DNA of 14,572 nt. Source: a virus (taxonomy: Duplodnaviria; Heunggongvirae; Uroviricota; Caudoviricetes). The position numbers and the translations under genes are program-made. The DNA lies in the IMG/VR virus record IMGVR_UViG_2648501787_000012; one strand, written 5' to 3'. The notes below the pieces were generated by a model, which worked only from the letters and a program-made list of their open reading frames with translations, did not search any database and was not told the origin of the DNA. Below are positions 1-14,572 of this stretch, one piece after another (the stretch's first letter is position 1; every line of letters begins with the position of its first letter).

Positions 1-1260
1 ATGCCAAAACTCACAGATATGCAGATCCGCGCATGGATAAAGGCGGGAGACAGATTTGATGGCAAGGCAGACGGCAACGGCCTTTATATTTGCTACCCCA
101 AAAACTACACAGCCCCGTTCTGGCGATTCCGCTATAAGCTCGCAGGAAAGCAGCGGGCTATGGTTATAGGCTCTTACTCCGAACTGTCACTATCAAAAGC
201 CAGAGAAACAGCAAAAGAGCTGTCAGCCAGAGTTGCTCTTGGCTATGACGTAGCAGCAGAGAAACAGGAACGAAAAGCTGAAGCACTGGCAAAAATGGAG
301 GCTGAGAAAAACGCCATGCGTGTTTCAGATCTGGCCTCCGAATACTTCGAGCGCCAGATACTTCCGAGATGGAAACATCCCGATATCCTTCGCCGGAGAA
401 TTGATAAGGATATTAACCCCTGCATTGGGCATATGAAGGTAGAGGACGTTAAGCCACGCCACATTGACGACATGTTGAAAGGTATCGTTGACCGAGGAGC
501 ACCAACGATAGCAACAGATGTATTACGCTGGACACGCCGTATCTTTGACTACGGGATAAAACGCCACGCTCTGGAGATAAACCCTTGTTCAGCGTTTGAA
601 GTATCTGATGCTGGTGGTAAAGAGGTTTCCCGCGACCGTTGGCTAACTCGCGATGAGCTTATCAGGCTATTCGAGGCTATGCGCACCGCAAAAGGATTCA
701 GCCGCCAGAACGAACTGACATTTAAGCTATTGCTGGCACTATGCGTTCGTAAGATGGAGTTATGCGCCGCACGATGGGAAGAGTTTGATTTAGATGGTGC
801 GGTATGGCATTTGCCGGAAGAACGCAGCAAAAACGGAGACCCTATTGATATACCTCTACCTTCCCCAGCCGTTGAATGGTTGAGAGAGCTACACACCTTT
901 TCATGTAATAGCGCATGGGTGCTTCCAGCCAGGAAGATGCAAAACAGAATGATCCCACATATTCAGGAAAGCACTTTGCCCGTAGCACTGGCTAAGGTTC
1001 GCGCCGAAATGCCGGATGTGCCTAATTTCACGATTCACGACTTCCGACGCACCGCACGTACTCATTTAGCAGCGTTGGGTGTTGATCCTGTCGTGGCGGA
1101 ACGATGCCTCAATCATCGCATTAAGGGCGTAGAGGGGATTTATAACCGCCATCAGTATTTTGATGAGCGTAAAGCAGCACTGGCACAGTGGGCTGATCTG
1201 CTGGTGGCACTGGAAAGCGGAAAAGACTACAACGTAACGCCTCTCAGAAGGGCGAACTAA
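1..1260 (+). CDS. int: Tyrosine site-specific integrase (P4/CP4-57 type, with N-terminal arm-binding region)
   Basis: 419-aa ORF. C-terminal catalytic motifs readable in the translation: HDFRRTARTHL, LNH, and terminal GIYNRHQY carrying the catalytic Tyr. N-terminus (MPKLTDMQIRAWIKAG...GLYICYPKN...FWRFRYKLAGKQR) matches the arm-type DNA-binding fold typical of P4-family integrases. Window begins at the ATG, so the upstream att site is not visible. Confidence 0.93.
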   Translation: MPKLTDMQIRAWIKAGDRFDGKADGNGLYICYPKNYTAPFWRFRYKLAGKQRAMVIGSYSELSLSKARETAKELSARVALGYDVAAEKQERKAEALAKMEAEKNAMRVSDLASEYFERQILPRWKHPDILRRRIDKDINPCIGHMKVEDVKPRHIDDMLKGIVDRGAPTIATDVLRWTRRIFDYGIKRHALEINPCSAFEVSDAGGKEVSRDRWLTRDELIRLFEAMRTAKGFSRQNELTFKLLLALCVRKMELCAARWEEFDLDGAVWHLPEERSKNGDPIDIPLPSPAVEWLRELHTFSCNSAWVLPARKMQNRMIPHIQESTLPVALAKVRAEMPDVPNFTIHDFRRTARTHLAALGVDPVVAERCLNHRIKGVEGIYNRHQYFDERKAALAQWADLLVALESGKDYNVTPLRRAN

Positions 1261-1355
1261 CTGAATAGATTGAGCCTAGCTCGACGGGGCGAAAAGCGGG
1301 AAGCCTTACCGCCTGGCTCAATCACAAAATAAGGCGCAGCGTAAAAGGTGACGCA

Positions 1356-2321
1356 ATGAACGACTCTCATGAAACAACAGTGGTGCATAGAAATTTATGG
1401 CAGGAATCAGGTATTCCACCTTTGGACTACTGCACGATAGAGCGAGCATCAAAATTATTAAATTGTGAAATTGATGATATATGGCATTGGAAAGATAGAC
1501 TACATATAGACTTTTATGTCTATGCTGACTTTCTTGATTTCATTGAATCTGATGCCACCATCCACTTCAAAAAAGATGCTAATTTTATAACTGATTTATT
1601 ACTTATGTACCCAGAAGAAGTAAGGTTTACATTTCCTTTTCTTATTACCAGCGCAAGCAACGAAGTTTATATCCCAGCATCTGAAAGCGGTGCTTATGAG
1701 CTATTTTATGCACATAAACCACTGACAGTTGAAGACAGCGACAATAAAAATGTTTTTGAACAAATTGGCAAAAACTCTTTTATTGTAAGAAAATCAATTG
1801 CATGTGGATTGTTGCGTGTACGCGGTAGAACAACACGACATTATCATTCACAAGAATGTGGAGAACCATATGTGCGACTTGAAGCAACATTTGATTGTGA
1901 TCTATATAAATTCAAAATGCAAAGTTCCCAAATTCACCTGAGTAGCCTGTCAGATAAAAACATTTATATAACAAAGGCTGATTTAGAATACCTTCATGAC
2001 GCAAAGGTTAATGGAAGTTTTGACGCAGCTAAGAGCAAAAAACGATACGAAATGGCGGTAGAACAGGAACTAATACCTGAAATAAAAAATAGCAACCATA
2101 ATGCCGAGAGACATGCTGAAAACAGGGAAAAACTTTTCAAATCTGCAATATATCTTTTGTCAAAGTATCCTGATGAATGCCGTGGCAAAAAGAAAGAAAT
2201 AAGCCCTGAGAAGTGGCGGGATTGCATAGTGGCTCATAAAGACGAAATTCCACCGTTAGCAATCACAAATGAAGATGTGATTTTGAGACACTTACGTGCT
2301 GCCGCCAACGGTAAGGGGTAG
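1356..2321 (+). CDS. Hypothetical protein, AT-rich cargo gene in the int-alpA slot (function unknown; candidate defence/anti-defence)
   Basis: 321-aa ORF with a Shine-Dalgarno-like AAGGTGA 6 nt upstream of the ATG and an intrinsic terminator immediately downstream. The sequence is visibly more AT-rich than the flanking int and alpA genes (e.g. aaattgatgatatatggcattggaaagatagactacatatagacttttatg). I recognise no motif in the protein. Confidence 0.8.
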   Translation: MNDSHETTVVHRNLWQESGIPPLDYCTIERASKLLNCEIDDIWHWKDRLHIDFYVYADFLDFIESDATIHFKKDANFITDLLLMYPEEVRFTFPFLITSASNEVYIPASESGAYELFYAHKPLTVEDSDNKNVFEQIGKNSFIVRKSIACGLLRVRGRTTRHYHSQECGEPYVRLEATFDCDLYKFKMQSSQIHLSSLSDKNIYITKADLEYLHDAKVNGSFDAAKSKKRYEMAVEQELIPEIKNSNHNAERHAENREKLFKSAIYLLSKYPDECRGKKKEISPEKWRDCIVAHKDEIPPLAITNEDVILRHLRAAANGKG

Positions 2322-2336
2322 AGTAGCTAACTATTC

Positions 2337-2366
2337 AGGCACAGTATCATTACTGTGCCTTTTTAT
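2337..2366 (+). terminator. Rho-independent terminator after the cargo gene
   Basis: Perfect 9-bp stem AGGCACAGT (2337-2345) / ACTGTGCCT (2352-2360) with a 6-nt loop, followed by TTTTTATTGTT. Confidence 0.75.
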
Positions 2367-2391
2367 TGTTCATATATGTACAGATACTTCC

Positions 2392-2432
2392 TCCCGTAAC
2401 GAAGCAACAACTATCGCTAAGAGGTTACGGGA
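2392..2432 (+). promoter_or_regulatory. Inverted repeat in the alpA leader (possible operator or RBS-occluding hairpin)
   Basis: TCCCGTAAC (2392-2400) and its exact reverse complement GTTACGGGA (2424-2432) separated by 23 nt. The right arm lies between the likely SD (AAGAGG, 2419-2424) and the alpA ATG (2436). Confidence 0.3.
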
Positions 2433-2435
2433 AGC

Positions 2436-2639
2436 ATGAACACCGACACTATTCCTACAAAAGGCTATATCAGACGCTTCCGCCTGGCTGAATTGCTGGG
2501 CGTTAGTGTATCCACCATCGACCGTAAAGTAAGAAACGGTTCACTACCACGTCCGGTAAAGCTGGGAGAAAAAATAACTGCGTTTGATGCGGTTGAGATT
2601 CACAACTGGCTGGCAGAACGCCGCGGGAAGGTGGCCTGA
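2436..2639 (+). CDS. alpA: AlpA/Vis-family helix-turn-helix transcriptional regulator (excisionase-like)
   Basis: 67-aa protein with a central HTH segment (RFRLAELLGVSVSTIDRKVRNGSLPRPVKLGEKITAFDAVEIHNWL), the size and pattern of AlpA/phage Xis-like regulators. Position immediately after int and cargo is typical of P4-like and PICI-like elements. Confidence 0.8.
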   Translation: MNTDTIPTKGYIRRFRLAELLGVSVSTIDRKVRNGSLPRPVKLGEKITAFDAVEIHNWLAERRGKVA

Positions 2640-3070
2640 TGGAAAAGAAAAACCGCCCATTACAGGCGGCTAATTCAGATATTCGCGTATCTGATGTTAC
2701 GCCCCTGACAAAATCCCTTCAAGCACCAAAGCGCACACCGAAAAAGCATCGTGCCAGAGTCTATATGCTGCGTACTGGTATAGAGGGATGGACAGAAAAT
2801 GACATTCTTCGCTACTGCCGTCTGTCTTCTGGTCGTAACTATGCAACAGAGTTAGAACGCCAGCTTGGAATCACTCTGGAGCGTATCGACGAAAAGAATC
2901 CTGATGGTATCGGAACACACCTTCGCTACCGTTTCTCCTGCCGTGGTGATGTTCTGAAAGTGATCACTCATGTTAACCATCTTGCGAACATAAATGATCA
3001 CAACGGACTTTCTCAGCAGGAAATTGCCGACATTCTGAAACTCTACCCGAACGCGTTTAACGCCGCCTAA
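2639..3070 (+). CDS. Hypothetical protein
   Basis: 143-aa ORF whose ATG overlaps the alpA stop (cTGATGg), i.e. translationally coupled. Basic N-terminus (KRTPKKHRAR). No family recognised. Confidence 0.65.
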   Translation: MEKKNRPLQAANSDIRVSDVTPLTKSLQAPKRTPKKHRARVYMLRTGIEGWTENDILRYCRLSSGRNYATELERQLGITLERIDEKNPDGIGTHLRYRFSCRGDVLKVITHVNHLANINDHNGLSQQEIADILKLYPNAFNAA

Positions 3071-3082
3071 CGGAGACTGAAA

Positions 3083-3916
3083 ATGAACATCGAAAAAAGC
3101 AGATTAATTTCTGAGGCCGCCCCTCATCTGAACGCCTCTCTGGGCACAATTAACGGTAATGAATTTGCCGCAATTGTCCCGGTTATTCCTGGTCATATCG
3201 GTGGGCGTGAAACCAATATTGTTAGCGCAAAAGCGTTACACAAAGCGTTGGGCGTGGGAAAAGACTTCTCTACATGGATCACTGATCGCATCTCTGAATA
3301 TGACTTCACCATTGGGCACGATTACTCAGTCCATAAAACAATTTCCCCAAATTTGGGGAAAAGCCCGAATGGCGCGGCTTACAGCAAGATAAAGCACTCT
3401 GGCAGACCCGGCAAAGACTATCTGTTAAGTGTCGGAATGGCGAAAGAACTGGCAATGATCGAACGCAATGATCAGGGTCGCGCTATCCGCCGTTATTTCA
3501 TCCAGTGCGAGGAAGAATTACAGCGTACCGTGCCTGAAATCGCCGCCCGCTATCGTCGCCAGCTAAAAGCCCGTATTAGTGCCGCAAACAACTTTAAGCC
3601 AATGTGCGATGCGCTGAATATGGCCCGTGCCGAGATGGGGAAAATGACGCAGCAACACCACTACACAAACGAGAGCAATATGATTTCTCGTATCGTTCTT
3701 GGTGGGCTAACTGCTAAGCAGTGGGCGCGGATAAATGGCTATTCTGGCGAACCTCGCGACCATATGAACGCAGAACAGCTTGAGCACCTCTCATATCTCG
3801 AAAGCACCAATATCACGTTAATTGATATGGGCATGGAATATGAGCAGCGCAAAGGAGAACTCACCCGCCTGTCGCAACGCTGGCTCGCCAAGCGTCTGGA
3901 GGCGCTCAATGTCTAA
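3083..3916 (+). CDS. AntA/AntB-type phage antirepressor-like protein
   Basis: 277-aa ORF with SD GGAGA 6 nt upstream. N-terminal segment (NIVSAKALHKALGVGKDFSTWITDRI...DYLLSVGMAKELAMIERNDQGRAIRRYFIQCEEEL) resembles the AntA antirepressor domain as I recall it. Not verified by search. Confidence 0.7.
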   Translation: MNIEKSRLISEAAPHLNASLGTINGNEFAAIVPVIPGHIGGRETNIVSAKALHKALGVGKDFSTWITDRISEYDFTIGHDYSVHKTISPNLGKSPNGAAYSKIKHSGRPGKDYLLSVGMAKELAMIERNDQGRAIRRYFIQCEEELQRTVPEIAARYRRQLKARISAANNFKPMCDALNMARAEMGKMTQQHHYTNESNMISRIVLGGLTAKQWARINGYSGEPRDHMNAEQLEHLSYLESTNITLIDMGMEYEQRKGELTRLSQRWLAKRLEALNV

Positions 3917-4088
3917 GCCAACAGGAACACCACAACCACAAAAACGCTACAAAGATGCCCACGGAGCACTCGTTACTGTCGAAAGCGTGTCTCACAACCG
4001 AGTGACGTTTTATCGCGACGGGTATCAATCGCCATGCGTACAACCGCTGGCGCGTTTCATGAAGGAGTTCGCGGAGGTTAACCAATGA
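3909..4088 (+). CDS. Small hypothetical protein (59 aa)
   Basis: ATG at 3909 overlaps the upstream stop (ATGTCTAA) and is preceded by a strong SD, GGAGG at 3898-3902. The track ORF 3822..4088 is in the same frame, but its first Met has no RBS and would overlap the upstream gene by about 95 nt. Confidence 0.55.
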   Translation: MSKPTGTPQPQKRYKDAHGALVTVESVSHNRVTFYRDGYQSPCVQPLARFMKEFAEVNQ

Positions 4089-5152
4089 TACCCGTCCAGA
4101 AGAAGACATTTTCACTGGCTGGTATGTCGCCAAAATCCAGCAATATGACGGCAAAGTCAGGCATTAATACAGCAGATACAAGCAAAGTTTATCATTTGCT
4201 GGTGGTCGGAACGGATGCCTTAACCATACCAGAAATCTCGGGCGATGATATTAGCATTGAGAAGGTCAGCGGCTGCGCCAGAAAATTTCTGGTCGTAGAT
4301 GATGTCTTCCGCTCGCGTAGTGACTCCACAAAAACCTTCATCCGCGCGCGTGACGTTAACGAAATGAGCGCGATGTACTGTGCATCTGGTGCTTCCAATA
4401 GCGAGTTTTCGGAGTCCATAAAAAAGAGCTTGCCGTTATGCGGCAACACGGTTTATGGTTATAAGGCACCTCATAAAACGGGTGCCGGGATTGGCGTCCT
4501 GGTAAATCGAATGGCGACATATGACGCGCCGAGCGTCTTTTTTTATGTCGTAGGTCTGACTCACCCATTTTTTGGGCGTTGGTGTATAATCCAGCGCCTT
4601 TGTCAATCAATGGTGGCTCAGGCAGGGGCTTCTTCGGAAGCGCCGGTATCCATTCGAGCCGGTTACGCCAACCCTGTCTGGGCTACCACCAGCGAAATTG
4701 GCGTTTCCGGTGGTAGCGTTACATGCTATCGAATGGAGGCTGCCACATGCTGGCTACTACCCCTACCCAAAAACCGCAATTTATCTGGATTATCGCCGCA
4801 GTTCGCCGCGATTGCCCGACAATTACCGCCAGAATTCATCATATTGCTGCCGAGTCTGAACGCGATGCTCGCCGTTCTCTGGTGCGCGATCACGTCTGCT
4901 TTTTTGCTGGTCGTATCCGCATGGAGGTGGCACATGATTAAAACCTACGATGTGCATATGGATCCCCTCGAACGCACAAGCCAGATCATCACACTGACAG
5001 AAGTGATTAACGACATTCTGGTGAGCAACTCTCCCTCACGAGACGAAAGACTGAAGGCGTTACTCGCGATATTGGATCTCGCCGTTCGTGACGTTCATTT
5101 CCTGCTGGAAGGTGGCGAAATGCCAGTAAAAACGGGGGCAACCAATGAATAA
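4085..5152 (+). CDS. Uncertain long ORF (355 aa), probably a chimeric open frame rather than one protein
   Basis: ATG at 4085 overlaps the upstream stop (ATGA) and has a strong SD (GGAGG 4073-4077). Codon choice looks coding-like from 4085 to about 4580. The same frame then runs without a stop through the candidate RNA region and through the Icd-like gene (different frame) where its codons look poor (cta cta ccc cta ... tta), and merges with the 72-aa ORF at 4934. Either a real 5' gene whose end is obscured (frameshift/pseudogene) or a fortuitous open frame. Confidence 0.3.
4595..4725 (+). ncRNA. Candidate CI/C4-type antisense immunity RNA (P4 CI RNA / P1 C4 / IsrK-like)
   Basis: Perfect -10 TATAAT at 4585-4590 with a weak -35. 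GC-rich structured segment follows: UUCG-tetraloop hairpin GCTTC-TTCG-GAAGC (4628-4641), a short CCGG/CCGG stem (4643-4662) presenting the loop TATCCATTCGAG, and a 9-bp stem GCTACCACC (4682-4690) / GGTGGTAGC (4709-4717). Loop bases TCCATTCGA (4649-4657) are exactly complementary to TCGAATGGA (4729-4737), which overlaps the SD of the Icd-like gene, and to TCGAATGG upstream (4507-4514). Boundaries are approximate. Confidence 0.35.
4747..4941 (+). CDS. Host cell division inhibitor Icd-like small protein
   Basis: 64-aa ORF ([22 protein letters not shown]...[24 protein letters not shown]) with strong SD GGAGG (4735-4739) 7 nt upstream and E. coli-like codon choice. The ...SER.ARR.L.RD.V.FFAGR motif matches my recollection of the Icd-like family that follows C4-type RNAs. 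The track ORF starts at 4723, but 4747 has the RBS. Confidence 0.55.
   Translation: MLATTPTQKPQFIWIIAAVRRDCPTITARIHHIAAESERDARRSLVRDHVCFFAGRIRMEVAHD
4934..5152 (+). CDS. Small hypothetical protein (72 aa)
   Basis: ATG overlaps the Icd-like stop (cacATGATTAAa) and is preceded by GGAGGTGG (4924-4931). Good codon choice. Same frame as the uncertain 355-aa ORF, so it may be that ORF's C-terminus. Confidence 0.45.
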   Translation: MIKTYDVHMDPLERTSQIITLTEVINDILVSNSPSRDERLKALLAILDLAVRDVHFLLEGGEMPVKTGATNE

Positions 5153-5339
5153 CTCAATTAATACCCCTCGCCTTACGTCCGCACTTCAATTAATCGAGCA
5201 AGCAGCGGCTGTCCTGGTTGCTGTCAGTCTTTCGGCTGAAGAAATGGACGCTACTGATGTCGTGGATGCGATTAAAGCGTGCTCATCTTTGGTTAACGAT
5301 GCCCGTGCAGAGCTGGTAATTCTTGGGGGTGAAAAATGA
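5145..5339 (+). CDS. Small hypothetical protein (64 aa)
   Basis: Start overlaps upstream stop (ATGAATAA); part of a coupled small-gene array. Confidence 0.6.
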   Translation: MNNSINTPRLTSALQLIEQAAAVLVAVSLSAEEMDATDVVDAIKACSSLVNDARAELVILGGEK

Positions 5340-5599
5340 ATATCAACTTAATTTATCGTCATCCGTGTGAGCTGGAAATTGAATCATTGCTGAGCCGTGA
5401 AGAACCATATCCAGACACATTCACTCTTGCAGATCGCACGACTGAACGGCTTACCAGAGCGCGCACAGGTCTGGTTCATGTGATGAATGAGATTCTTCCA
5501 TCGGTGGGAGGGGAACAGGCGACAGTAATCACTAGCTGGCTACAAAAAGTTACCTCTCTGATAGATATCAGTTTAATCGATGCGGAGAGTGCGAAATGA
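5336..5599 (+). CDS. Small hypothetical protein (87 aa)
   Basis: Start overlaps upstream stop (ATGA); same array. Confidence 0.6.
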   Translation: MNINLIYRHPCELEIESLLSREEPYPDTFTLADRTTERLTRARTGLVHVMNEILPSVGGEQATVITSWLQKVTSLIDISLIDAESAK

Positions 5600-5817
5600 C
5601 CAACATCCAGCTCATTGAAGCGCAATGTCGCATCGAACAGGTTCAGACTGTTTTAGGGTTCTGGCTTGAAGGGGCCAGCCCCAGCAACAGAGACAAGTTA
5701 ATGATTGGCGCGGTTATGTCACTGCTCAATGGCGTACCAGAAGCTATTCAGGAAGCAGACGAATTGTTGGGCAAATATGAGTTACAGAATCATTCAGGCG
5801 AGGCGAAACATGAATAA
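5596..5817 (+). CDS. Small hypothetical protein (73 aa)
   Basis: Start overlaps upstream stop (ATGA); same array. Confidence 0.6.
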   Translation: MTNIQLIEAQCRIEQVQTVLGFWLEGASPSNRDKLMIGAVMSLLNGVPEAIQEADELLGKYELQNHSGEAKHE

Positions 5818-6412
5818 TTTCTTAACTTTCCAGGCAGAAGCAACGCCTGACGGCGTAAACATCATGCACCGCAGCAACGATGGCATGACAGAACGCGTTG
5901 AGACCGTCTCATATATTGATGCCGTAAATCGTCTGGATGCCGGGGATTATGACGATAAACCAGATGAAGGTATGTCAATACATCTCGCTATTGCCGATGG
6001 CGGCAACCAGGGATATTTCGATTACACATCACAGCATAACGTCATTATGTGGAGATGGTTGATCGCAACAGTATTCATGCTGGAAATGAGAGAGGAAAAC
6101 GGCACTGTCAGCATCATTGATGATACTGGCAATCCTTCCGAAGTGGCTGTTTATTCCAACGGCATCGTCGCCATGCCGCTGTATCCAGTAGCAGAGCGCC
6201 TCGCTATGGCAAACAACATTGAGGGCGCGATGATAGAACGTTTTGGCATCGAGTCTGGCACAGAACGCTCCATCATTTTCTACAGAGCCATGATGGATGT
6301 GGAACAAGGAGCACTGACTCCATTTGGTCGTGAAACGCTTGCTGAACTTCACAACAGCTTTATAGCTGAACTGAATGAAAACGGCATGCCATCGGAACCA
6401 GTGACGCACTGA
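5810..6412 (+). CDS. Hypothetical protein (200 aa)
   Basis: ATG at 5810 overlaps the upstream stop (ATGAATAA) and has a GGCGAGG SD-like sequence. The track ORF start at 5705 would overlap the upstream gene by over 100 nt and lacks an RBS. Confidence 0.65.
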   Translation: MNNFLTFQAEATPDGVNIMHRSNDGMTERVETVSYIDAVNRLDAGDYDDKPDEGMSIHLAIADGGNQGYFDYTSQHNVIMWRWLIATVFMLEMREENGTVSIIDDTGNPSEVAVYSNGIVAMPLYPVAERLAMANNIEGAMIERFGIESGTERSIIFYRAMMDVEQGALTPFGRETLAELHNSFIAELNENGMPSEPVTH

Positions 6413-6422
6413 GGATGGAACC

Positions 6423-6764
6423 ATGATTACTAAAAATTTCCGACTGAATGCGCTGGCAAATAAGTATGCGTCAGCACTGTATAACCACATTACCTCCACC
6501 AGCGGCGGGGACTATTTCATGATTGATGCGGACGGAGAGGCCGTACGTGTGGAAATCGTCAATGGAGTAAAAGGCGTTCGCAGCCTGATCGATAGTTACG
6601 CACTGGCAGCCATGAAAGTGTTCTACCCGCAGTGGGAAACCGTGGGGATCGAGCTTCTTGATCGTTGCGTCACTAAGGACAGATTGACTGACGTCGGGCG
6701 TGAGATATGGCAAAGCATGGTTAATGACATGGGCGCAACTGTAGCGGGAGGTTCTCATGCGTGA
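6423..6764 (+). CDS. Hypothetical protein (113 aa)
   Basis: ORF with SD-like GAGGATGG upstream of the ATG at 6423. Confidence 0.65.
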   Translation: MITKNFRLNALANKYASALYNHITSTSGGDYFMIDADGEAVRVEIVNGVKGVRSLIDSYALAAMKVFYPQWETVGIELLDRCVTKDRLTDVGREIWQSMVNDMGATVAGGSHA

Positions 6765-7128
6765 AAATGCAGAAATGGCGCTTAGCTCCGCAATCGGAGA
6801 GCAGGTGGCAAAGATTGCTGGTGCTGTGTGGATTCATAACCTTCATTCTACTGGTGAAGAGAAAATGGCAATTCAGACGCCAGAGGGACGCACTATTACT
6901 ACATCTCTGAAGCCGTCAGATGTTTGTGATCTGATTTGCGCATTCATGTACCCAGCAATGAGGACTGTCCACGGCGATAAGTGGAAACTTGCGACAACCG
7001 CTGAATTTGATATGTGGCTAAACAATGATGGCATGCTGACTGATTACGGAATAACCAAGTGGCAGATGCTGGTTAGCCATATCGCAAACGCTATAGACCA
7101 CGTGGGGTACGGTGATGCGAAACATTGA
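6757..7128 (+). CDS. Hypothetical protein (123 aa)
   Basis: Start overlaps upstream stop (ATGCGTGA); its 3' end overlaps the primase start. Confidence 0.65.
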   Translation: MRENAEMALSSAIGEQVAKIAGAVWIHNLHSTGEEKMAIQTPEGRTITTSLKPSDVCDLICAFMYPAMRTVHGDKWKLATTAEFDMWLNNDGMLTDYGITKWQMLVSHIANAIDHVGYGDAKH

Positions 7129-9871
7129 TCTTATCCGTCAGGTTATCAGTGCGTCTGAAAACAACTGGCCTCATGTGCTGGGCTGCCTGAACATAAATGT
7201 CCCTGACTCTCCGCGCCGTCATGCTCCCTGCCCTGCATGTGGGGGCAAAGATCGATTCCGGTTCGATGACAACGGGCGCGGTAGCTTCATCTGTAATCAG
7301 TGCGGCGCTGGTGATGGGCTGGATTTAATTAAACGCGTAAATAACTGCGACACAACAGAGGCGGCGCTGCTTGCCGCTGATGTTCTGGGTATTGATTACC
7401 GGACAACGGAAACACCAGAAGCCACCAGCCAGAAACGGGAACAACTGGAAACCGAGCGCCAGCAACGCGAACAGGAGCGCCTGAAAAGGGCGGAGAAGGA
7501 CGAACAACAAAGACGGGATACGTTTTCCCGTCAGTTTGATGACATGCGCAGAAAGGCTGTAAACGGCAAATCTGATTATCTGGTTGCGAAAGGGGTAGGT
7601 GATTTTACATTCCCCGTGTTGCCCGATGGATCTCTGTTGCTGGCGCTGGTGGATAAATCCGGCGCAGTCACAGCAGCACAGACTATTACCTCACATGGTG
7701 AAAAAAGACTCCTGACAGGTTCAGCAAAGCGGGGGGCATATCACGCCATAAACGCACCAGAAACAACACAGAGCATCTTAATCGCAGAAGGGCTGGCAAC
7801 GGCATTATCTGCCCATTTAATTCGTCCAGAGGCGCTGACAGTGGCGGCGATTGATGCCGGGAACCTGTTATATGTCGCCCAGGTACTGCGGGATAAATTT
7901 CCTTCAGCACAAATCATCATTGCTGCGGATAACGACCACAGCGAAGGAAGACAAAACACGGGGAGAATAGCAGCAGAAAAAGCAGCTTTATCTGTTTCTG
8001 GATGGGTGGCATTACCCCCGACAGGTCACAAAGCAGACTGGAATGATTACCACCAAAAACACGGCATTAAATGCGCCACAGAAGCGTTCAATAAGTCAAT
8101 GTACCAACCACAGGGTAATGGCGTGAAACAGGAGCCACAGACCATTGAGGGAAGCGATTTTAAGGTTATGGATACCGACCCACTGAAACCAAGAATAGAA
8201 AGCCGCGAGGATGGTATTTATTGGGTATCTCCGAGAGCTGACAGCCAGAGTGGAGAAATCATCAATAACGAAAGCTGGTTATGTTCTCCGTTAAGCGTTA
8301 TCGGTACTGGCAGAGACGATAAAGACCAGTATCTCATTCTTCGCTGGCTGTCGTTTGGTTCTGAAACGCCGACAACCGCTGCCATTCCACTGGCTGATAT
8401 TGGTGAACGTGAAGGATGGCGCACACTTAAAGCTGGTGGGGTAAATGTCACGACCAAAAGCAGCCTCAGAGCAATACTGGCAGACTGGCTACAACGCAGT
8501 GGCTCTCGTGAATTGTGGCGTGTTGCTCATGCCACTGGCTGGCAATGCGGAGCGTACATCATGCCTGATGGGGAAATCATCGGAACACCTGAAAATCCTG
8601 TGCTGTTCAGCGGGAGAAGCTCAGCCGCAGCCGGATATACCGTCTCAGGGAGCGCGCAAAGCTGGCGTGATAACGTGGCGCGTCTGGCCTTTGGTAACTA
8701 TTCAATGATGACCGGGATCGGCGCAGCACTGGCAGCACCATTGATTGGGCTGGTGGGCGCTGACGGGTTCGGCATTCATTTCTATGAGCAGTCGAGCGCA
8801 GGTAAGACCACCACGGCAAACGTGGCGAGCAGCTTATACGGCAACCCTGATTTACTGCGGCTGACGTGGTACGGAACCGCGCTGGGGCTGGCAAATGAGG
8901 CCGCCGCCCACAATGACGGACTAATGCCGCTTGATGAAGTTGGTCAGGGCGCTGATCCTGTCAGCGTTTCACAGTCTGCCTATGCGTTATTTAACGGTGT
9001 AGGGAAACTGCAAGGCGCTAAAGATGGTGGAAACCGGGATCTAAAACGCTGGCGTACAGTGGCAATCAGCACCGGAGAAATGGATTTAGAAACATTTATC
9101 GCTACTTCCGGGCGAAAAACCAAAGCCGGGCAACTGGTGCGACTGCTGAATATTCCGTTGAGTAAAGCAGTACGCTTTCACGATTACCAGAACGGAAAAC
9201 AGCACGCAGACGCACTGAAAGACGCTTACCAGCATCACCATGGCGCAGCCGGGCGTGAGTGGATTAAATGGCTGGCAGACCACCAGCAACAGGCTATTAA
9301 AACTGTTCGTGATTGCGAAAGCAGATGGAGAAGCCTGATCCCACCCGATTATGGTGAGCAGGTTCACCGTGTAGCCGCGCGATTTGCCATTCTGGAGGCC
9401 GCATTGTTGTTAGGCGAGGTTGTAACAGGCTGGGATGCTCAGACATGCCGTGATGCGATACAGCACAGCTATAACGCATGGTTGCGCGAGTTCGGCACAG
9501 GTAACAAAGAGCATCAGCAGATTATTGAACAAACGGAGGCATTTCTTAATGCCTATGGGCTTAGCCGTTTTGCACCATTTCCATACAGCCCGGCAGATTT
9601 GCCCATCAAAGATTTAGCCGGATACCGTCAGCGTGGAGAACATGACGAAAGCCCAATGATTTTCTACACATTCCCGGCCACATTTGAAAAGGAGATCGCA
9701 TGTGGTTTCAACGCAAAACAGTTTGCTGAAGTGTTGAAAAAAGCCGGGATGCTAACCCCACCAAACAGCGGTCGTGGATACCAAAGAAAATCACCACGTA
9801 TTCAGGGACGACAAATAAACGTTTATGTACTCAATTACCAGCCAGGAGATTATAACTCATCTGAAGAATGA
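7112..9871 (+). CDS. P4 alpha-type DNA primase/helicase (zinc ribbon + TOPRIM + P-loop NTPase)
   Basis: 919-aa ORF. N-terminal zinc ribbon CPACGGKDRFRFDDNGRGSFICNQCG; TOPRIM signatures ILIAEGLATALS and IIIAADNDHSEGR; Walker A-like FYEQSSAGKTTT in the C-terminal half. Domain order matches phage P4 alpha and related satellite primases. Confidence 0.93.
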   Translation: MMRNIDLIRQVISASENNWPHVLGCLNINVPDSPRRHAPCPACGGKDRFRFDDNGRGSFICNQCGAGDGLDLIKRVNNCDTTEAALLAADVLGIDYRTTETPEATSQKREQLETERQQREQERLKRAEKDEQQRRDTFSRQFDDMRRKAVNGKSDYLVAKGVGDFTFPVLPDGSLLLALVDKSGAVTAAQTITSHGEKRLLTGSAKRGAYHAINAPETTQSILIAEGLATALSAHLIRPEALTVAAIDAGNLLYVAQVLRDKFPSAQIIIAADNDHSEGRQNTGRIAAEKAALSVSGWVALPPTGHKADWNDYHQKHGIKCATEAFNKSMYQPQGNGVKQEPQTIEGSDFKVMDTDPLKPRIESREDGIYWVSPRADSQSGEIINNESWLCSPLSVIGTGRDDKDQYLILRWLSFGSETPTTAAIPLADIGEREGWRTLKAGGVNVTTKSSLRAILADWLQRSGSRELWRVAHATGWQCGAYIMPDGEIIGTPENPVLFSGRSSAAAGYTVSGSAQSWRDNVARLAFGNYSMMTGIGAALAAPLIGLVGADGFGIHFYEQSSAGKTTTANVASSLYGNPDLLRLTWYGTALGLANEAAAHNDGLMPLDEVGQGADPVSVSQSAYALFNGVGKLQGAKDGGNRDLKRWRTVAISTGEMDLETFIATSGRKTKAGQLVRLLNIPLSKAVRFHDYQNGKQHADALKDAYQHHHGAAGREWIKWLADHQQQAIKTVRDCESRWRSLIPPDYGEQVHRVAARFAILEAALLLGEVVTGWDAQTCRDAIQHSYNAWLREFGTGNKEHQQIIEQTEAFLNAYGLSRFAPFPYSPADLPIKDLAGYRQRGEHDESPMIFYTFPATFEKEIACGFNAKQFAEVLKKAGMLTPPNSGRGYQRKSPRIQGRQINVYVLNYQPGDYNSSEE

Positions 9872-9893
9872 GCTTCTTCATGTGCGTAGAAAA

Positions 9894-10010
9894 GGTGTTG
9901 GTTCAGTTGGTTCAGTTGGTTCAATTTGTAAAGAGTATTGTTTTATAAGGATTTTATTCTTTTTATTGAACCAACACTGAACCAACAACACGGTATTTTG
10001 AACCAACACA
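9894..10010. repeat. Iteron array, putative replication origin
   Basis: Three tandem copies of GTTGGTTCA (9897-9905, 9906-9914, 9915-9923), a 43-bp very AT-rich spacer (9924-9966), then three copies of the reverse complement TGAACCAAC (9967-9975, 9978-9986, 9999-10007) spaced 11 and 21 bp. Begins 23 bp after the primase stop. Confidence 0.7.
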
Positions 10011-10100
10011 ATGTGACTGAATTGATGCGCACAACACCTGGCTGGCATCAGAGAGTGTTTTACGAGACTTTCGTAAAATCCTGTGTACAAGGGCGTGACG

Positions 10101-10141
10101 TTTTTGAAAGTGAGCACTACGAAATTTTCGTAGTTCAAAAA
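10101..10141. promoter_or_regulatory. Nested palindrome, possible protein-binding site or cruciform
   Basis: Outer arms TTTTTGAA (10101-10108) / TTCAAAAA (10134-10141); inner arms CTACGAAA (10117-10124) / TTTCGTAG (10126-10133) around one central T; 8-nt asymmetric insert on the left. A further TTTCGTAA half-site lies at 10069-10076. Confidence 0.35.
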
Positions 10142-10329
10142 ACAGCCTCTGAGAAGTTGTTATGCCTGTTCAGCAAACCATCCGCATAGCTGATCGCGAA
10201 TCAAATTACCAATGGAGCCAGAAGCAAGGGCAGAACTGAAAAGCGCCTGCCGTAAAGAGTAATGCGACACCATAAATATAGTTTTTAGAGTCCATAAAAA
10301 ACCTGTCAAAACCTGACACACAGAACGAT

Positions 10330-10360
10330 GCCACCAGCTACTGAGCGGTGGCATTTTTTT
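10330..10360 (+). terminator. Rho-independent terminator at the module boundary
   Basis: Stem GCCACC (10330-10335) / GGTGGC (10347-10352) with an 11-nt loop, followed by ATTTTTTTG. Confidence 0.7.
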
Positions 10361-10392
10361 GTGCTATTTGTTTCATATTTTGCAATTACGAT

Positions 10393-10422
10393 GATGAATA
10401 TTGCGATTTGCGAAACTATAAT
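10393..10422 (+). promoter_or_regulatory. Candidate sigma70 promoter for the downstream operon
   Basis: Perfect -10 TATAAT at 10417-10422 about 35 bp upstream of a strong RBS and ATG (10456); the -35 (around 10393-10399) is poor. AT-rich intergenic context. Confidence 0.3.
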
Positions 10423-10455
10423 AACTGTTGTTTTATACAGTTCTAAGGGGGCGTT

Positions 10456-10617
10456 ATGGCTATTTCAGTAAAGCCGGTATTGATAAGTGAGAAGCAAATG
10501 GAAGCGATAAAGAAAATTCAGGAAGAGCAGCGTAAAAAATCAGGAATTGGAGTAGCGCCAACTCTGCATGAAATTGCACGAGGGTTAATAGATAAGGCGC
10601 TGGCAGGCTGTATGTGA
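10456..10617 (+). CDS. Small hypothetical protein (53 aa), possibly ribbon-helix-helix-like
   Basis: Not in the ORF track (under 60 aa). ATG at 10456 preceded by an excellent SD (TAAGGGGGCG); stop TGA at 10615-10617. The translation (MAISVKPVLISEKQMEAIKKIQEEQRKKSGIGVAPTLHEIARGLIDKALAGCM) loosely fits a strand-helix-helix pattern; weak inference. Confidence 0.45.
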   Translation: MAISVKPVLISEKQMEAIKKIQEEQRKKSGIGVAPTLHEIARGLIDKALAGCM

Positions 10618-10633
10618 AAACGGATGGCACCGC

Positions 10634-11095
10634 ATGGAACTAAAATTTATTGATAACCCGGTGCGATTACAGGCCTTTCTTAACGAGCCTGGCAATACCG
10701 AAAATATTGTTGAGCCGGGGCACACGTACTACATCAAGCCTGATGCGGTATATCTCGGCATCTACGAAGGATTAGTGCTGACAGGCGTTCATGAAGTGCG
10801 TAACTTCTGGCATAGCATTGTTGAATGCCATGCGGTGTACGACCCCGGATTCCGTGGTGAATATGCACTGCAAGGGCATCGATTGTTCTGCAAATGGCTT
10901 CTCGAAAACTCACCATTCCTTAACAGCATCACCATGGTTCCTGACACCACGAAATACGGACGGGCAATTATCCGTTTGCTTGGCGCTACCCGTGTTGGTC
11001 ACCTGGCCGATGCATATATCAGATGTGGTAAACCCGTCGGCGTAACGCTTTATCAGTTAACACGGCAACAATATAAGGAACTCAGCGAATGTTAA
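10634..11095 (+). CDS. Hypothetical phage protein (153 aa), first gene of the ejection-protein-like operon
   Basis: Globular-looking protein with several His/Cys. Its stop overlaps the next start (ATGTTAA). Positionally analogous to P22 gp14, but homology is not established. Confidence 0.75.
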   Translation: MELKFIDNPVRLQAFLNEPGNTENIVEPGHTYYIKPDAVYLGIYEGLVLTGVHEVRNFWHSIVECHAVYDPGFRGEYALQGHRLFCKWLLENSPFLNSITMVPDTTKYGRAIIRLLGATRVGHLADAYIRCGKPVGVTLYQLTRQQYKELSEC

Positions 11096-11766
11096 TTACC
11101 CATATAGCTCATAAACATCTCAATCGTGCCGTATACGAAAAAGGCGGTGATGGTGGTGCCTCTAAAGCCCAGGCGAAGGCCCAGCAGCAGGCAATTGATT
11201 TGCAGCGCGAGCAGTGGAATACGGTGATGAATAATCTCAAGCCGTATGCAGAAGTCGGATTGCCTGCTTTACAACAACTGCAAGGACTGATGACTCTGGA
11301 AGGGCAGAATAAAGCCGCGAATGATTTCTTTGGTTCTGGTTTATATAAAACACAGGCAGATCAGGCCCGTTATCAGAACCTTGTCTCAGCAGAAGCTACC
11401 GGGGGGCTTGGCTCAACAGCTACCAGTAACCAGTTATCTTCCATTGCGCCCATGCTTTATAACAATTGGCTTAGTGGGCAAATGCAAAATTATGGAAACC
11501 TGCTAAATGTCGGGATGAATGCGGCATCAGGGCAGGCAACAGCAGGGCAAAACTACGCCAATAATACCGGACAACTCTTGCAGGGGCTTGGCGCTATTCG
11601 TGCAGGTCAGGCGCAGCAGCCATCCAGTCTTGCGCGTGGTATTGGTGGGGCGGCATCAGGCGCTTTAGCGGGTGCGCAACTTGGTTCCGTTGTTCCGGGT
11701 ATAGGTAATGTCGCCGGGGCTATTGGTGGTGGGCTTATTGGTCTTGTTGGGGGGCTTGGATTCTAA
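11089..11766 (+). CDS. Putative phage DNA ejection/transfer protein (P22 gp7-like by size and composition)
   Basis: 225-aa protein, Q/A/N/G-rich and low complexity, with a glycine-zipper-like hydrophobic C-terminus (GIGGAASGALAGAQLGSVVPGIGNVAGAIGGGLIGLVGGLGF). Coupled to neighbours by overlapping stop/start. Confidence 0.8.
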   Translation: MLITHIAHKHLNRAVYEKGGDGGASKAQAKAQQQAIDLQREQWNTVMNNLKPYAEVGLPALQQLQGLMTLEGQNKAANDFFGSGLYKTQADQARYQNLVSAEATGGLGSTATSNQLSSIAPMLYNNWLSGQMQNYGNLLNVGMNAASGQATAGQNYANNTGQLLQGLGAIRAGQAQQPSSLARGIGGAASGALAGAQLGSVVPGIGNVAGAIGGGLIGLVGGLGF

Positions 11767-13186
11767 TGACGACATGGCAACTTGGCGGGCTGCCTAGCAT
11801 GGCACCGCAAAATGATAATGCTCCTCGTTCTTCCGTTCCTCAGCCTGTGCAGTATCAGCAGCAGCCAAACGTAGGTTTAATGGCGCTACAGGGGCTAAGA
11901 GGCGTTGCTGAGATTAATCAGCAGGCACGTCAACAACAGCGTAAATCAGAGTTTCAGAAAGCATATGCCGGGGCTTTTGAGTCTGGAGACAGAAACAAAA
12001 TGCGCAGTCTTATTTCTGAGTATCCAGAAGAATTTGAAAGCGTTCAGAAAGGGATGGGCTTTATTGATGACGACCAGAGAAATTCTATTGGTCATCTTGC
12101 GACTAGTGCTCAAATCGCATCTTCGCTCGGAACTGGGGCATTTGGAAAATTCATAGCAGATAACGAAGATGAAATGCGTCGCTTGGGAATTTCTCCTGAG
12201 TCTGTTGCCGAAATGCATGTTAATGATCCACAGGGATTCCAGCGGCTTGCTGGTAGTATGGCACTGTTTTCTCTCGGTCATGAGAAGTATTTCAATATCA
12301 AAGATCAAATGGAAGGTCGGGATATTGAGCGAGGCAGGCTGGCAGAGACAATCCGCAGCAATCAGGCTGGCGAAGCACTTCAGGCGAGAGGGCAGGATAT
12401 TAGCCGAGCAAATGCGTTAACGTCAGCATATGCACCAACAGCAGCAATGCAGAATTACAATCAGTACGCTCAAATGTTAAAGGCGGATCCAGAGGGGGCG
12501 GCGGCATTTGCGGCAGCGGCTGGAATTAATACAAACGCCAAAAAATTAATGAGTGTTAGAGAAAACGATGATGGCACTGTCACAAAATACTACACAGACG
12601 GAAGTGAAGAGCAGGGAAAACTAAACCAGCCAATATCTGGAGATGGGTTTCGTCCAATAGCTTTGCCAACAGCCCAAAAGATCATGGAAAAGTCGCCAGA
12701 AGGGGCTAAAAAAGCTGCTGGATTTGCATACAGGGTTAGGGATGCTCTTGATTCAATAGATACACTGAAAGACCAGCTTAGCCCACAGCGAGTGGCGATC
12801 ATTAATAATGCTTTGGGTAATGGGACGCTGGCTAACTTAACGCTCAGCCCAACAGAGCAGCAATACGTTGTTAATGCTAATGACGCAATAATGGCAATAC
12901 TCCGTCAGGAAACAGGGGCAGCTATCGTACCTGCTGAAATGTCAAAATATTATCAAATGTATTTCCCTCAGCCTGGCGACTCCACAAAAACCATTGATAC
13001 CAAGCGCCGGAAGATGGAAAACCAGTTCAATTCGCTGAAAGCTGCTTCTGGTCGAGCTTATGATGCTTTGCGGGTTATTTCAGCAGTTGACAGAGGAACG
13101 TCTTCTTCGTCGCAGACATTGCCGCAATCTGAGCAGGTATCACAGCCAGCAGCCAGCAGTAACTTTTCTTCACTATGGGGTGATTA

Positions 13187-13187
<1 letters not shown>
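11766..13187 (+). CDS. Putative phage DNA ejection/transfer protein (P22 gp20-like by size and order)
   Basis: 473-aa protein, Q/A/S-rich, start overlaps upstream stop (TAATG). Sizes of the coupled genes here (225, 473, 461 aa) parallel the P22 gp7-gp20-gp16 ejection-protein trio as I recall it (about 229, 471, 609 aa). Recollection, not an alignment. Confidence 0.85.

Positions 13188-14572
<1,385 letters not shown>

Follow-up and report, generated by a model that had tools for sequence, protein, structure and literature searches.

Three coupled genes between alpA and the primase of an E. coli PICI-type satellite lie in its Bro zone, a region that is already known, and the middle one encodes a 277-aa protein with an AntA domain that we tentatively read as a helper-induced, exchangeable DNA-binding regulator rather than as a shown antirepressor. 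We put this reading somewhat short of an even chance and prefer it to the alternatives weighed below. The analysis covers a 14,572-nt stretch of Caudoviricetes DNA (IMG/VR record IMGVR_UViG_2648501787_000012), called here the window, whose relevant features are collected in Table 1.

Results

The window is an EcCIMP1-like satellite of the E. coli PICI type. A satellite setting had been assumed in the original prediction, and it is borne out by the presence of int, alpA, Bro-type genes, P4-like immunity RNAs and a TOPRIM/DUF927 primase, together with 97.4% nucleotide identity over 9.3 kb (positions 2629-11926) to EcCIMP1, the experimentally verified PICI of E. coli MP1, which has the P22-like phage Kapi1 as its helper (Pick, Stadel & Raivio 2025, PMC11773190). 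The order int, alpA, primase, with all three co-oriented and no phage capsid or lysis genes between them, is that of Gram-negative PICIs. Both islands share the gene order alpA, 143-aa gene, AntA, DUF4222, Ash, primase, DUF2824/ejection genes, and within this orthologous block the amino-acid identities are 98% for the 143-aa protein, 96% for AntA, 95% for DUF4222 and 99% for the primase. In contrast, the integrases are only 28% and the AlpA proteins 34% identical, the window adjoins yicC whereas EcCIMP1 sits at tRNA-Thr, and the window has an additional 321-aa gene and another gp20/gp16 allele. The low AlpA identity places the window's AlpA, which is 35% identical to P4 Vis/ORF88, in a swapped int-alpA module. 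Helper-dependent alpA induction, excision, replication and transfer have been demonstrated for EcCIMP1 with Kapi1 (PMC11773190); these mobilisation data come from that island, whereas the window's allele carries a different int-alpA module. The module with the three genes was found in 847 of 5426 complete E. coli genomes (~16%).

Gram-negative PICIs have been divided into Integration, Bro, Replication and Late zones, with AntA listed among the Bro-network domains (Mageeney et al. 2023, PMC10111431). The region studied here has a Bro-network domain gene between alpA and the replication genes, and the domain is swapped among relatives; it is the Bro zone of an EcCIMP1-type PICI. Across 40 related loci, the slot behind the 143-aa gene holds an AntA body in 23, Bro-N in 14, Rha in two and Ash in one, each behind a conserved leader peptide that is maintained despite synonymous nucleotide changes. 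The swap junctions map to codon ~15-20 and to the stop codon. Sharing of the AntA protein's C-terminal domain by the Bro-N and Rha variants was considered and rejected, identity being 22-26% in a forced alignment.

DUF4222 is present at 26 of the 40 loci, behind AntA, Bro-N and Rha bodies alike, and appears to be an optional accessory. The three genes had been taken for one module, but the trio is not obligate: DUF4222 lies next to the slot gene at 18 of the 40 loci only, and AntA is also found without either neighbour. The two flanking proteins had further been described as unknowns, which stands for the 143-aa protein, for which we found no family, and not for the 59-aa protein, which belongs to DUF4222 (PF13973).

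The three predicted plus-strand ORFs were all found exactly where they had been placed (Table 1), and PGAP annotation contains the same three. Their Ka/Ks values of 0.09-0.21 against Serratia, Klebsiella and Enterobacter orthologues (with Ks of at least ~0.85), the PGAP agreement and the numbers of homologue clusters (608 for the 143-aa protein and more than 1800 for the AntA protein) establish them as real genes rather than chance ORFs. They lie in an operon between alpA and the primase, and the coupling suspected between neighbours extends further than the trio, every junction from alpA to Ash being tight or overlapping: the alpA stop and the start of the 143-aa gene overlap by 1 nt (TGATG), the 12-nt gap before the AntA gene contains GGAG, the AntA and DUF4222 genes overlap by 8 nt, and DUF4222 meets the Ash ORF in an ATGA overlap. 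Neither terminators nor promoter-like sites were predicted on the plus strand between 2360 and 4257, and the first predicted plus-strand terminator after the one that precedes alpA is only at 4523.

Table 1 Features of the alpA operon and its surroundings in the window.
Feature	Coordinates	Strand	Description
Intrinsic terminator	2337-2360	+	10-bp stem, 4-nt loop, T-run; closes the upstream 321-aa gene; the alpA transcription unit begins here
Inverted repeat TCCCGTAAC-N23-GTTACGGGA	2392-2432	+	Ends 3 nt 5' of the alpA start codon
alpA (67 aa)	2436-2639	+	First gene of the operon; Pfam Phage_AlpA, E 2.2e-8; master activator of Gram-negative PICIs
143-aa basic protein gene	2639-3070	+	Satellite-specific backbone gene, always coupled to alpA
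AntA-type Bro-network protein gene (277 aa)	3083-3916	+	Leader, AntA domain, long helix, helical C-terminal domain
AntA/AntB Pfam domain (aa 47-129)	3221-3469	+	Exchangeable N-terminal module
DUF4222 protein gene (59 aa)	3909-4088	+	ATG start; facultative small neighbour; PF13973, E 5.8e-25, 87 bits vs cut-off 27
Ash-family (P4 Eta-like) ORF	4085-5152	+	PF10554 at aa 124-232, E 3.1e-30; covers the immunity RNAs; the three genes are coupled into it
Promoter-like site within the Ash ORF	4257-4286	+	TTGAGA-18-GAAAAT; consensus match only
isrK-type RNA	4466-4543	+	Rfam RF01394, 67.1 bits vs gathering score 50; terminator 4523-4537
C4/CI-type antisense immunity RNA	4606-4693	+	Rfam RF01695, 79.5 bits vs gathering score 45

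A search for a sigma-70 consensus promoter just upstream of alpA, around the inverted repeat, found none, which would fit an activator-dependent promoter. The repeat itself is a candidate operator or RNA hairpin of a helper-responsive alpA control region. At the other end of the operon, the isrK and C4 RNAs lie inside the Ash ORF and are collinear with the P4 cI region, whose product aligns to 4580-4917 (E 1.5e-14). The promoter-like site ahead of them is, by analogy, a candidate counterpart of PLE, the promoter from which P4 transcribes its immunity RNA constitutively.

For the 143-aa protein, searches of Pfam, NCBIfam, PHROG, PADLOC, PDB and the phage collection gave no match. Its predicted structure consists of a disordered basic N-terminal tail (aa 1-33) and a helix-helix-helix-strand-strand core resembling a winged helix, and its mean column identity across genera is 84%. 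We regard it as probably a satellite-specific basic protein of winged-helix-like topology that belongs to the conserved backbone of the island and not to the int-alpA module. A specific partnership with AlpA, also considered, is unlikely because between the window and EcCIMP1 the 143-aa protein is almost invariant while AlpA has diverged to the extent given above. The two leader types showed no clear pattern of co-variation with variants of the 143-aa protein, which could have been a sign of physical partnership.

The AntA protein comprises a disordered, conserved leader (aa 1-23), the AntA domain (aa ~30-130), a basic long helix (130-184) and a helical C-terminal domain (191-276). A profile search confirmed the domain that had been predicted: PF08346 matches aa 47-129 with an E value of 2.7e-21 (76.4 bits against a cut-off of 27), and also matches all 39 aligned full-length relatives. 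The protein further matches PHROG 'anti-repressor Ant' families, and in tblastn its aa 31-157 match 'antirepressor' genes of Stx2a phages. The Pfam search returned nothing besides AntA, with both P22_AR_C and ANT/KilAC absent. Since BLAST alignments to streptococcal Ant proteins extend to aa 220, the C-terminal domain was tested as a diverged ANT/KilAC; this was rejected, a custom ANT/KilAC HMM scoring below zero and hhalign giving a probability of 0.3%. The AntA form is 66-73% identical across genera, a conservation that says little about its target.

The AF2 model of the AntA protein (pLDDT 81) has a single structural match, to the dimeric DNA-binding protein DdrC (PDB 7QVB, 7UDI), and this match is near full-length. 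Like DdrC, the model has an N-terminal domain with a beta-hairpin and wHTH, a long connecting helix and a C-terminal helical bundle. Sequence homology to DdrC was found neither by phmmer nor by profile searches of PDB, and nothing meaningful came from PDB sequence searches in which the AntA protein, a profile of 39 AntA sequences or the 143-aa protein served as the query. The protein is basic (pI 9.3 overall, 10.0 for the long helix). From these features it may be a DNA-binding protein of the Bro network, with a beta-hairpin and winged-helix AntA domain, a basic long helix and a helical bundle. It should be mentioned that the wHTH of DdrC is itself acidic, DNA being held in grooves of the dimer (PMC9303277), so that likeness of fold is no proof of sequence-specific binding. 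PADLOC detected no established defence system, its hits being limited to two candidates, PDC-S22 and, weakly, PDC-S31; the former is an unvalidated profile, of which positions 156-259 of 281 align to aa 165-266 of the AntA protein (E 7.6e-11).

Discussion

We propose a scheme in which the AntA protein acts after the helper has been sensed, and not before. Entry of a P22-like helper into the lytic cycle would activate the alpA promoter, giving a single transcript of alpA, the 143-aa gene, the AntA gene, DUF4222 and the Ash/Eta-like ORF. Ribosomes would pass from gene to gene, and translation would probably enter the Ash ORF across the isrK and C4 RNAs, as in P4; by analogy with P4, such translation would probably override immunity-dependent termination. 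The AntA protein might then dimerise and bind DNA through its DdrC-like architecture and modulate, most likely by dampening or redirecting, transcription or replication after induction, its targets being the helper or an incoming related phage, island genes, or both. The N-terminal body (AntA, Bro-N or Rha) would serve as an exchangeable specificity cassette behind the constant leader peptide.

Two precedents point to such a function. The AntA/AntB domain of Listeria AriS, tested alone, leaves induction itself unaffected and, once it has taken place, reduces phage transcription and replication and the yield of virions (PMC9043618); in a full-text search of the literature this was the only functional study of an AntA domain that we found. 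In the Vibrio PLE satellite, CapR represses a gene of the helper by binding DNA (PMC8096241). Several points weigh against the regulator reading: the DdrC resemblance comes from a predicted model, AriS comes from a Gram-positive phage and differs in its C-terminal domain, and cassette swapping fits a protein-binding specificity module, for example an antirepressor, equally well. No candidate operator for the AntA protein was identified.

The role that the original prediction had assigned to the AntA protein is that of a true antirepressor, which, as a functional analogue of epsilon, would start or reinforce the induction of a resident helper, P22-like or lambdoid, by binding its CI-type repressor. 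We consider this improbable. The matched Pfam and PHROG families do carry antirepressor names, the Ant protein of Phi24B, with an AntA-like N-terminus, promotes efficient induction (PMC3064807), P4 epsilon (as annotated in P4) is a precedent for helper derepression by satellites, and an exchangeable N-domain could follow diverse repressors. EcCIMP1 is also known to aid its helper by another route, through AlpA_1 acting as an excisionase (PMC11773190). However, the Ant activities that have been tested or proposed reside in C-terminal domains, P22_AR_C and ANT/KilAC (PMC3064807, PMC9043618), neither of which the AntA protein has, and it is in the P22_AR_C part that Phi24B Ant resembles P22 Ant (PMC3064807). 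The AriS domain does not affect induction, and the sole fold match is to a DNA-binding protein. The position of the gene argues in the same direction: the EcCIMP1 alpA promoter does not fire until the helper has been induced (PMC11773190), and the three genes, lying behind alpA, are thus downstream of helper sensing. Lastly, deletion of the whole of EcCIMP1 changed neither the Kapi1 titre after mitomycin C nor the CI-lux reporter (PMC11773190). Nor is the placement that of epsilon, which in P4 follows the cI RNA (vis - cI - epsilon); the three genes end at 4088, upstream of isrK and C4. Overall, the first interpretation holds for the AntA domain, the satellite, the operon and the coupling, and gives way on helper derepression, epsilon-like placement and the obligate trio.

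It is just as improbable, in our estimate, that the protein is a DdrC-like structural binder of DNA ends, nicks or duplexes that, acting without sequence specificity, would protect island DNA, compact it or close it into circles while it is replicated and packaged, or else would sequester helper DNA. The near full-length fold match is to DdrC alone, DdrC compacts and circularises DNA (PMC9303277), the AntA protein is basic, and from the gene arrangement it would be co-expressed with the island replication genes. Against this, one would not expect a generic binder to trade places with Bro-N and Rha bodies in a cassette that looks like one for specificity, sequence homology to DdrC is lacking, and related PICIs manage without the AntA form, as at the 14 Bro-N loci.

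Slightly less probable still is an anti-phage or superinfection-exclusion effector, in which the AntA protein, alone or with the 143-aa protein, would strengthen lysogen immunity to superinfecting Kapi1. EcCIMP1 does confer additional superinfection immunity to Kapi1, and PADLOC and DefenseFinder found no known defence system in it (PMC11773190), a phenotype that might also match the regulator reading. The C-terminal match to PDC-S22 and the tenfold drop in virion yield upon overexpression of the AriS AntA/AntB domain (PMC9043618) also favour an effector. However, only half of that candidate profile is matched, many other uncharacterised island genes, including P22-like ejection-protein genes, are equally good candidates, and the explanation overlaps with a regulator without excluding it. 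The least probable alternative is that the proteins have no dedicated partnership, being dispensable passengers at a recombination hot spot, and that coupling merely carries ribosomes from alpA to the Ash/Eta-like ORF in a P4-style, translation-dependent anti-termination: all junctions are coupled and related PICIs lack DUF4222 and the 143-aa gene, but all three proteins are under strong purifying selection and the 143-aa protein keeps its cross-genus identity.

We advance the following only as a doubtful extension. AntA-plus-helical-domain proteins, which form thousands of phage and satellite clusters, might be mobile-element relatives of DdrC, hitherto called genus-specific, and PICIs might use a plug-in system whose constant leader (joined by the 143-aa partner in this lineage) accepts AntA, Bro-N or Rha DNA-recognition bodies and so retargets control over different helpers. 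A new, epsilon-independent family of helper-derepressing proteins ranks as less likely than this. Were helper derepression true, it would explain the mobilisation of PICIs that are seldom found in one genome with their helper, and it would amount to a second answer, unrelated to epsilon, to the problem for which P4 uses epsilon.

The result is of use as a correction and in practice. A gene carried by roughly 16% of complete E. coli genomes owes the label 'antirepressor' to a family name only, and the EcCIMP1 orthologue drawn as "antirepressor" (PMC11773190) is likewise an annotation; what the gene represents is one allele in an exchangeable cassette. EcCIMP1 and Kapi1 offer a ready experimental system for its function, and the predicted DdrC-like architecture provides a testable biochemical expectation, namely a DNA-binding dimer.

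Comparison with known systems

P4 epsilon resembles the AntA gene in lying between an alpA homologue and the primase, in the leftward operon of P4. Epsilon has 95 aa whereas the AntA protein has 277, and the two have no sequence similarity: tblastn of Epsilon against the window gave no homologue (best E 0.05, at an unrelated place), and among the P4 proteins only Vis, the cI region, alpha and int align, with no homologue of epsilon, ORF151 or ORF106 in the window.

Ant proteins of the Phi24B type from Stx phages share the AntA-like N-terminus of the AntA protein, whereas P22_AR_C is common to P22 Ant and Phi24B Ant and missing here. AriS of Listeria phage phi10403S has an N-terminal AntA/AntB domain, and its relatives alternate AntA, Bro-N and pRha at this end (PMC9043618). 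Its C-terminal domain is ANT/KilAC, an SOS inhibitor, to which that of the AntA protein is unrelated, and AriS is a phage gene whereas the AntA gene belongs to a satellite. DdrC of Deinococcus radiodurans is a chromosomal DNA-damage-response protein, described as Deinococcus-specific, in contrast to the satellite-encoded AntA protein.

CapR exemplifies the type of function proposed here: it is encoded by a satellite, belongs to the Bro/KilA/T5orf172 network, binds DNA and acts as a repressor on a helper gene. Its domain family and its satellite lineage are different ones. The published Bro zone (PMC10111431) agrees with the region in its place between int/alpA and the replication zone, in the swapping of AntA, Bro-N, Rha and Ash domains and in the immunity RNAs of the C4/isrK type, and to this the present analysis adds, for one lineage, that a 143-aa partner gene is constant, that the leader peptide is conserved and where exactly the swap junctions lie.

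Gene order and coupling

Every long ORF in the window is encoded on the + strand (Table). The original prediction described an AntA-like gene coupled to two flanking genes at 2639-4088, and these limits are exact for all three ORFs. The coupling is borne out by a 1-nt overlap between alpA and the 143-aa gene, a 12-nt gap with GGAG before the AntA gene, an 8-nt overlap between AntA and DUF4222, and an ATGA overlap between DUF4222 and the Ash ORF. The anticipated AntA domain was recovered by profile search. Both flanking proteins had been described as unknown; the 143-aa protein has no match in any family, profile or structure search run, but the 59-aa protein is a DUF4222 member. Several small ORFs separate the Ash ORF from the primase, after which homologues of the P22 gp14/gp7/gp20/gp16 cluster close the gene order.

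Features of the window
Feature	Position	Strand	Evidence or remark
Tyrosine integrase	1-1260	+	
int-alpA RNA	1269-1335		Rfam RF02996
321-aa ORF	1356-2321	+	
Inverted repeat	2392-2432		shortly 5' of alpA start codon
AlpA-family protein, 67 aa	2436-2639	+	
143-aa gene	2639-3070	+	
AntA gene, 277 aa	3083-3916	+	Pfam AntA/AntB at aa 47-129, E 2.7e-21
DUF4222 gene, 59 aa	3909-4088	+	DUF4222, E 5.8e-25
Ash-family ORF	4085-5152	+	
isrK-type RNA	4466-4543		Rfam; inside Ash ORF
C4/CI-type RNA	4606-4693		Rfam; inside Ash ORF
Icd-like ORF	4723-4941		NF033153, E 6e-20; frame differs from overlapped Ash ORF
TOPRIM/DUF927 primase	7112-9871	+	
Iteron-like repeats	9893-10012		AT-rich stretch
Late zone	10634-14572		P22-like homologues

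Ka/Ks values of 0.09-0.21 against orthologues in other genera show that purifying selection acts on the 143-aa and AntA genes. For the 59-aa gene (Ka 0.18-0.31, 64-73% amino acid identity to other-genus orthologues) Ks is saturated, hence no Ka/Ks is given.

An EcCIMP1-type PICI

From 2629 to 11926 the window shares 97.4% identity with the E. coli MP1 element EcCIMP1, a PICI verified by experiment whose excision, circularisation and transduction occur only with the P22-like helper Kapi1 (PMC11773190). The 143-aa, AntA, DUF4222 and primase proteins are 98%, 96%, 95% and 99% identical, whereas the integrase and AlpA share merely 28% and 34%, and similarity breaks at the alpA/143-aa junction. Because the 143-aa protein is so conserved where AlpA has been swapped, it is part of a conserved Bro/replication block and probably does not serve AlpA as a specific partner. 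Of 5426 complete E. coli genomes, 847 carry the stretch 2436-4200, and yicC adjoins the island in NZ_CP077574. We assign the AntA gene with high confidence as a Bro-zone gene of an EcCIMP1-type PICI.

NZ_CP077574 is 99.7% identical to the window up to 11926, past which the window switches to another gp20/gp16 allele; the gp20-like protein is just 30% identical to that of EcCIMP1, and the mosaic breakpoint falls inside its gene (11926-14572). The late zone holds homologues of the P22 gp14 (DUF2824), gp7, gp20 and gp16/lytic-transglycosylase ejection-protein cluster, with patches 86-94% identical to P22-like podophages, Kapi1 among these; such satellite-borne ejection proteins could bear on EcCIMP1 superinfection immunity. 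The iteron-like repeats right after the primase gene comprise three direct copies of GTTGGTTCA (9897-9929) and three inverted copies, TGAACCAAC (9966-10009), and are probably the island's replication origin.

An exchangeable cassette behind a constant partner

A profile of the 143-aa protein retrieved 38 further loci in Enterobacterales species; with the window and three other loci, and less two cut-off loci, these form a set of 40. The gene directly after the 143-aa gene starts 13-17 nt past it in this set and encodes AntA in 23 loci, Bro-N in 14, Rha in two and Ash in one. Its first ~15-20 codons specify one of two leader peptides, M-x-I-E-K-S-R-x-x-S-E-A-A-P-Q or M-K-x-x-N-x-x-x-x-G-Q-G, both of which precede AntA, Bro-N and Rha bodies, with synonymous differences present. 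Island pairs across genera share 94-99.6% identity over the 143-aa gene and leader (in one pair alpA too) and then diverge, similarity returning in two pairs exactly at the stop codon of the exchanged gene. This position is an exchangeable cassette, and it is the Bro zone of Mageeney et al., one of four ordered zones in Gram-negative PICIs, which has C4/isrK RNAs inside it and whose domains include AntA, Bro-N, pRha and Phage_ASH (PMC10111431). BRO, AntA/AntB and Rha genes are also listed in a survey of Enterobacter cloacae PICIs (PMC13612085).

The leader is disordered and kept at the protein level over ~15 residues (window 3083-3150; loci L011-L047), and might bind a partner, act as a degron or anchor recombination; a vaguely similar sequence, MEKKNRPxQQAAN, is found at the N-terminus of the 143-aa protein.

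The 143-aa protein is basic (pI 9.65), shows 84% mean column identity and was not found in 50,697 phage genomes. Of the 40 loci, 26 contain DUF4222, which adjoins the exchanged gene in 18 and is found behind AntA, Bro-N and Rha bodies alike. AntA orthologues occur directly after alpA with both neighbours missing in another yicC-site PICI (57% identity), behind a Bro-N gene in a cfPICI-like contig, and as a solitary full-length copy in Edwardsiella phage EPP-1 (63%). Since DUF4222 is facultative and AntA occurs without either neighbour, the trio is an arrangement specific to the lineage and does not constitute an obligate system of three genes.

One typical enterobacterial PICI locus (CACSKA010000004.1; 143-aa protein 82% identical) lies in an assembly labelled Chryseobacterium sp., which is probably contaminated or mislabelled.

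Predicted architecture of the AntA protein

With 7409 clusters (50% identity, E up to 0.001), the AntA family is very large. One subfamily retains the full two-domain architecture, and every C-domain-bearing relative examined also carries AntA. An AlphaFold model built from 39 diverse sequences (pLDDT 81) predicts a disordered leader (aa 1-23), a beta-hairpin and winged-helix-like domain (aa 30-130) with a disordered loop (aa 87-106), then a basic helix of 55 residues and a helical bundle. For the C-terminal domain, P22_AR_C was rejected (no Pfam match), as was ANT/KilAC (no Pfam match; custom HMM, hhalign probability 0.3%).

The sole solved structure resembling the modelled AntA plus helical domain architecture (3083-3916) is DdrC (PDB 7QVB/7UDI), which binds DNA as a domain-swapped dimer and compacts it (PMC9303277); at sequence level the two show no detectable relation. 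DdrC has been described as Deinococcus-specific and without structural homologues, and the AntA plus helical architecture is very common in phages and satellites. Because of this resemblance, DdrC may descend from AntA proteins of mobile elements or have a common ancestor with them. The helical domain (aa 165-266, 3575-3880) also matches PDC-S22, an unvalidated single-gene defence candidate in PADLOC (E 7.6e-11).

Regulatory layout

No + strand terminator is predicted in 2360-4523, and the only + strand promoter-like site there, at 4257-4286 inside the Ash ORF, corresponds in place to PLE of P4. We infer that the trio is transcribed only from the alpA promoter, which in EcCIMP1 responds to helper induction and not to DNA damage itself (PMC11773190). 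The Ash ORF, as called by PGAP, has 355 aa and spans both immunity RNAs; its true coding extent is doubtful, as the Ash domain is confined to aa 124-232; the EcCIMP1 copy of the Ash gene is a pseudogene.

The 321-aa ORF separates the int-alpA RNA motif from alpA and looks like an inserted cargo gene: it is GC-poor (34% over 1501-2000), is closed by a strong terminator and belongs to no family, with a weak PADLOC PDC-S31 match (E 0.002), and similar ORFs of ~277-323 aa, without Pfam match, are found at this position in islands of Serratia, Klebsiella and Pectobacterium. The perfect 9-bp inverted repeat TCCCGTAAC-N23-GTTACGGGA, in a region with no sigma-70 consensus promoter, may be an operator (for a helper-encoded activator or AlpA) or an RNA hairpin.

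Helper derepression and a proposed mechanism

That the AntA protein derepresses the helper, as its family name suggests, is in our judgement improbable. Phi24B offers a precedent, but the likeness of its Ant to P22 Ant lies in the C-terminal part (PMC3064807), so the absence of P22_AR_C and ANT/KilAC, the known effector domains, matters. It matters also because in Listeria AriS, whose AntA/AntB domain is the only one for which a functional test was found in the literature, SOS inhibition resides in KilAC, and AntA/AntB alone reduced transcription and replication of the phage and its virion yield following induction while leaving induction unaffected (PMC9043618). Exchangeable bodies could follow differing repressors, yet the gene sits behind a promoter firing only once the helper is induced, and the predicted fold is a DNA-binding one. 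[quoted passage not shown] Deletion of all of EcCIMP1 left the Kapi1 titre (after mitomycin C) and CI-lux unchanged (PMC11773190), which only weakens derepression because induction was saturating and the whole island was removed.

We tentatively propose instead that helper induction triggers AlpA-led transcription, yielding the 143-aa, AntA and DUF4222 proteins and taking ribosomes on into the Ash ORF and over the immunity RNAs. The AntA protein would dimerise through its helical domain, bind DNA and modulate helper and/or island gene expression or replication, the body setting the target; a link to EcCIMP1-dependent superinfection immunity against Kapi1 is possible.

Comparison with known systems

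Both the gene with its label and the dynamic zone holding it are already in the literature: PGAP gives 'antA/AntB antirepressor family protein', 'DUF4222 domain-containing protein' and 'ash family protein', and the EcCIMP1 map reads 'antirepressor', as annotation only (PMC11773190). Incremental additions are the predicted DdrC-like architecture and the constant 143-aa partner with its conserved leader and precise swap junctions. In P4, eta translation coupled to the alpA homologue blocks CI-dependent termination (PMC10111431); the unbroken translational coupling from alpA to the Ash ORF fits this rule, and therefore joint action of the three proteins need not follow. In alignments with P4, Vis matches AlpA, the cI region matches 4580-4917 and alpha matches the primase; no counterpart of epsilon, ORF151 or ORF106 is present in the window. 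The P4 order is vis - cI - epsilon - alpha, which puts epsilon downstream of the immunity RNA, whereas the trio is inserted upstream of it, directly behind alpA, and the proposed epsilon-like placement does not hold. A further incremental result is thus that position and domain content set the AntA gene apart from both epsilon and proven antirepressors.
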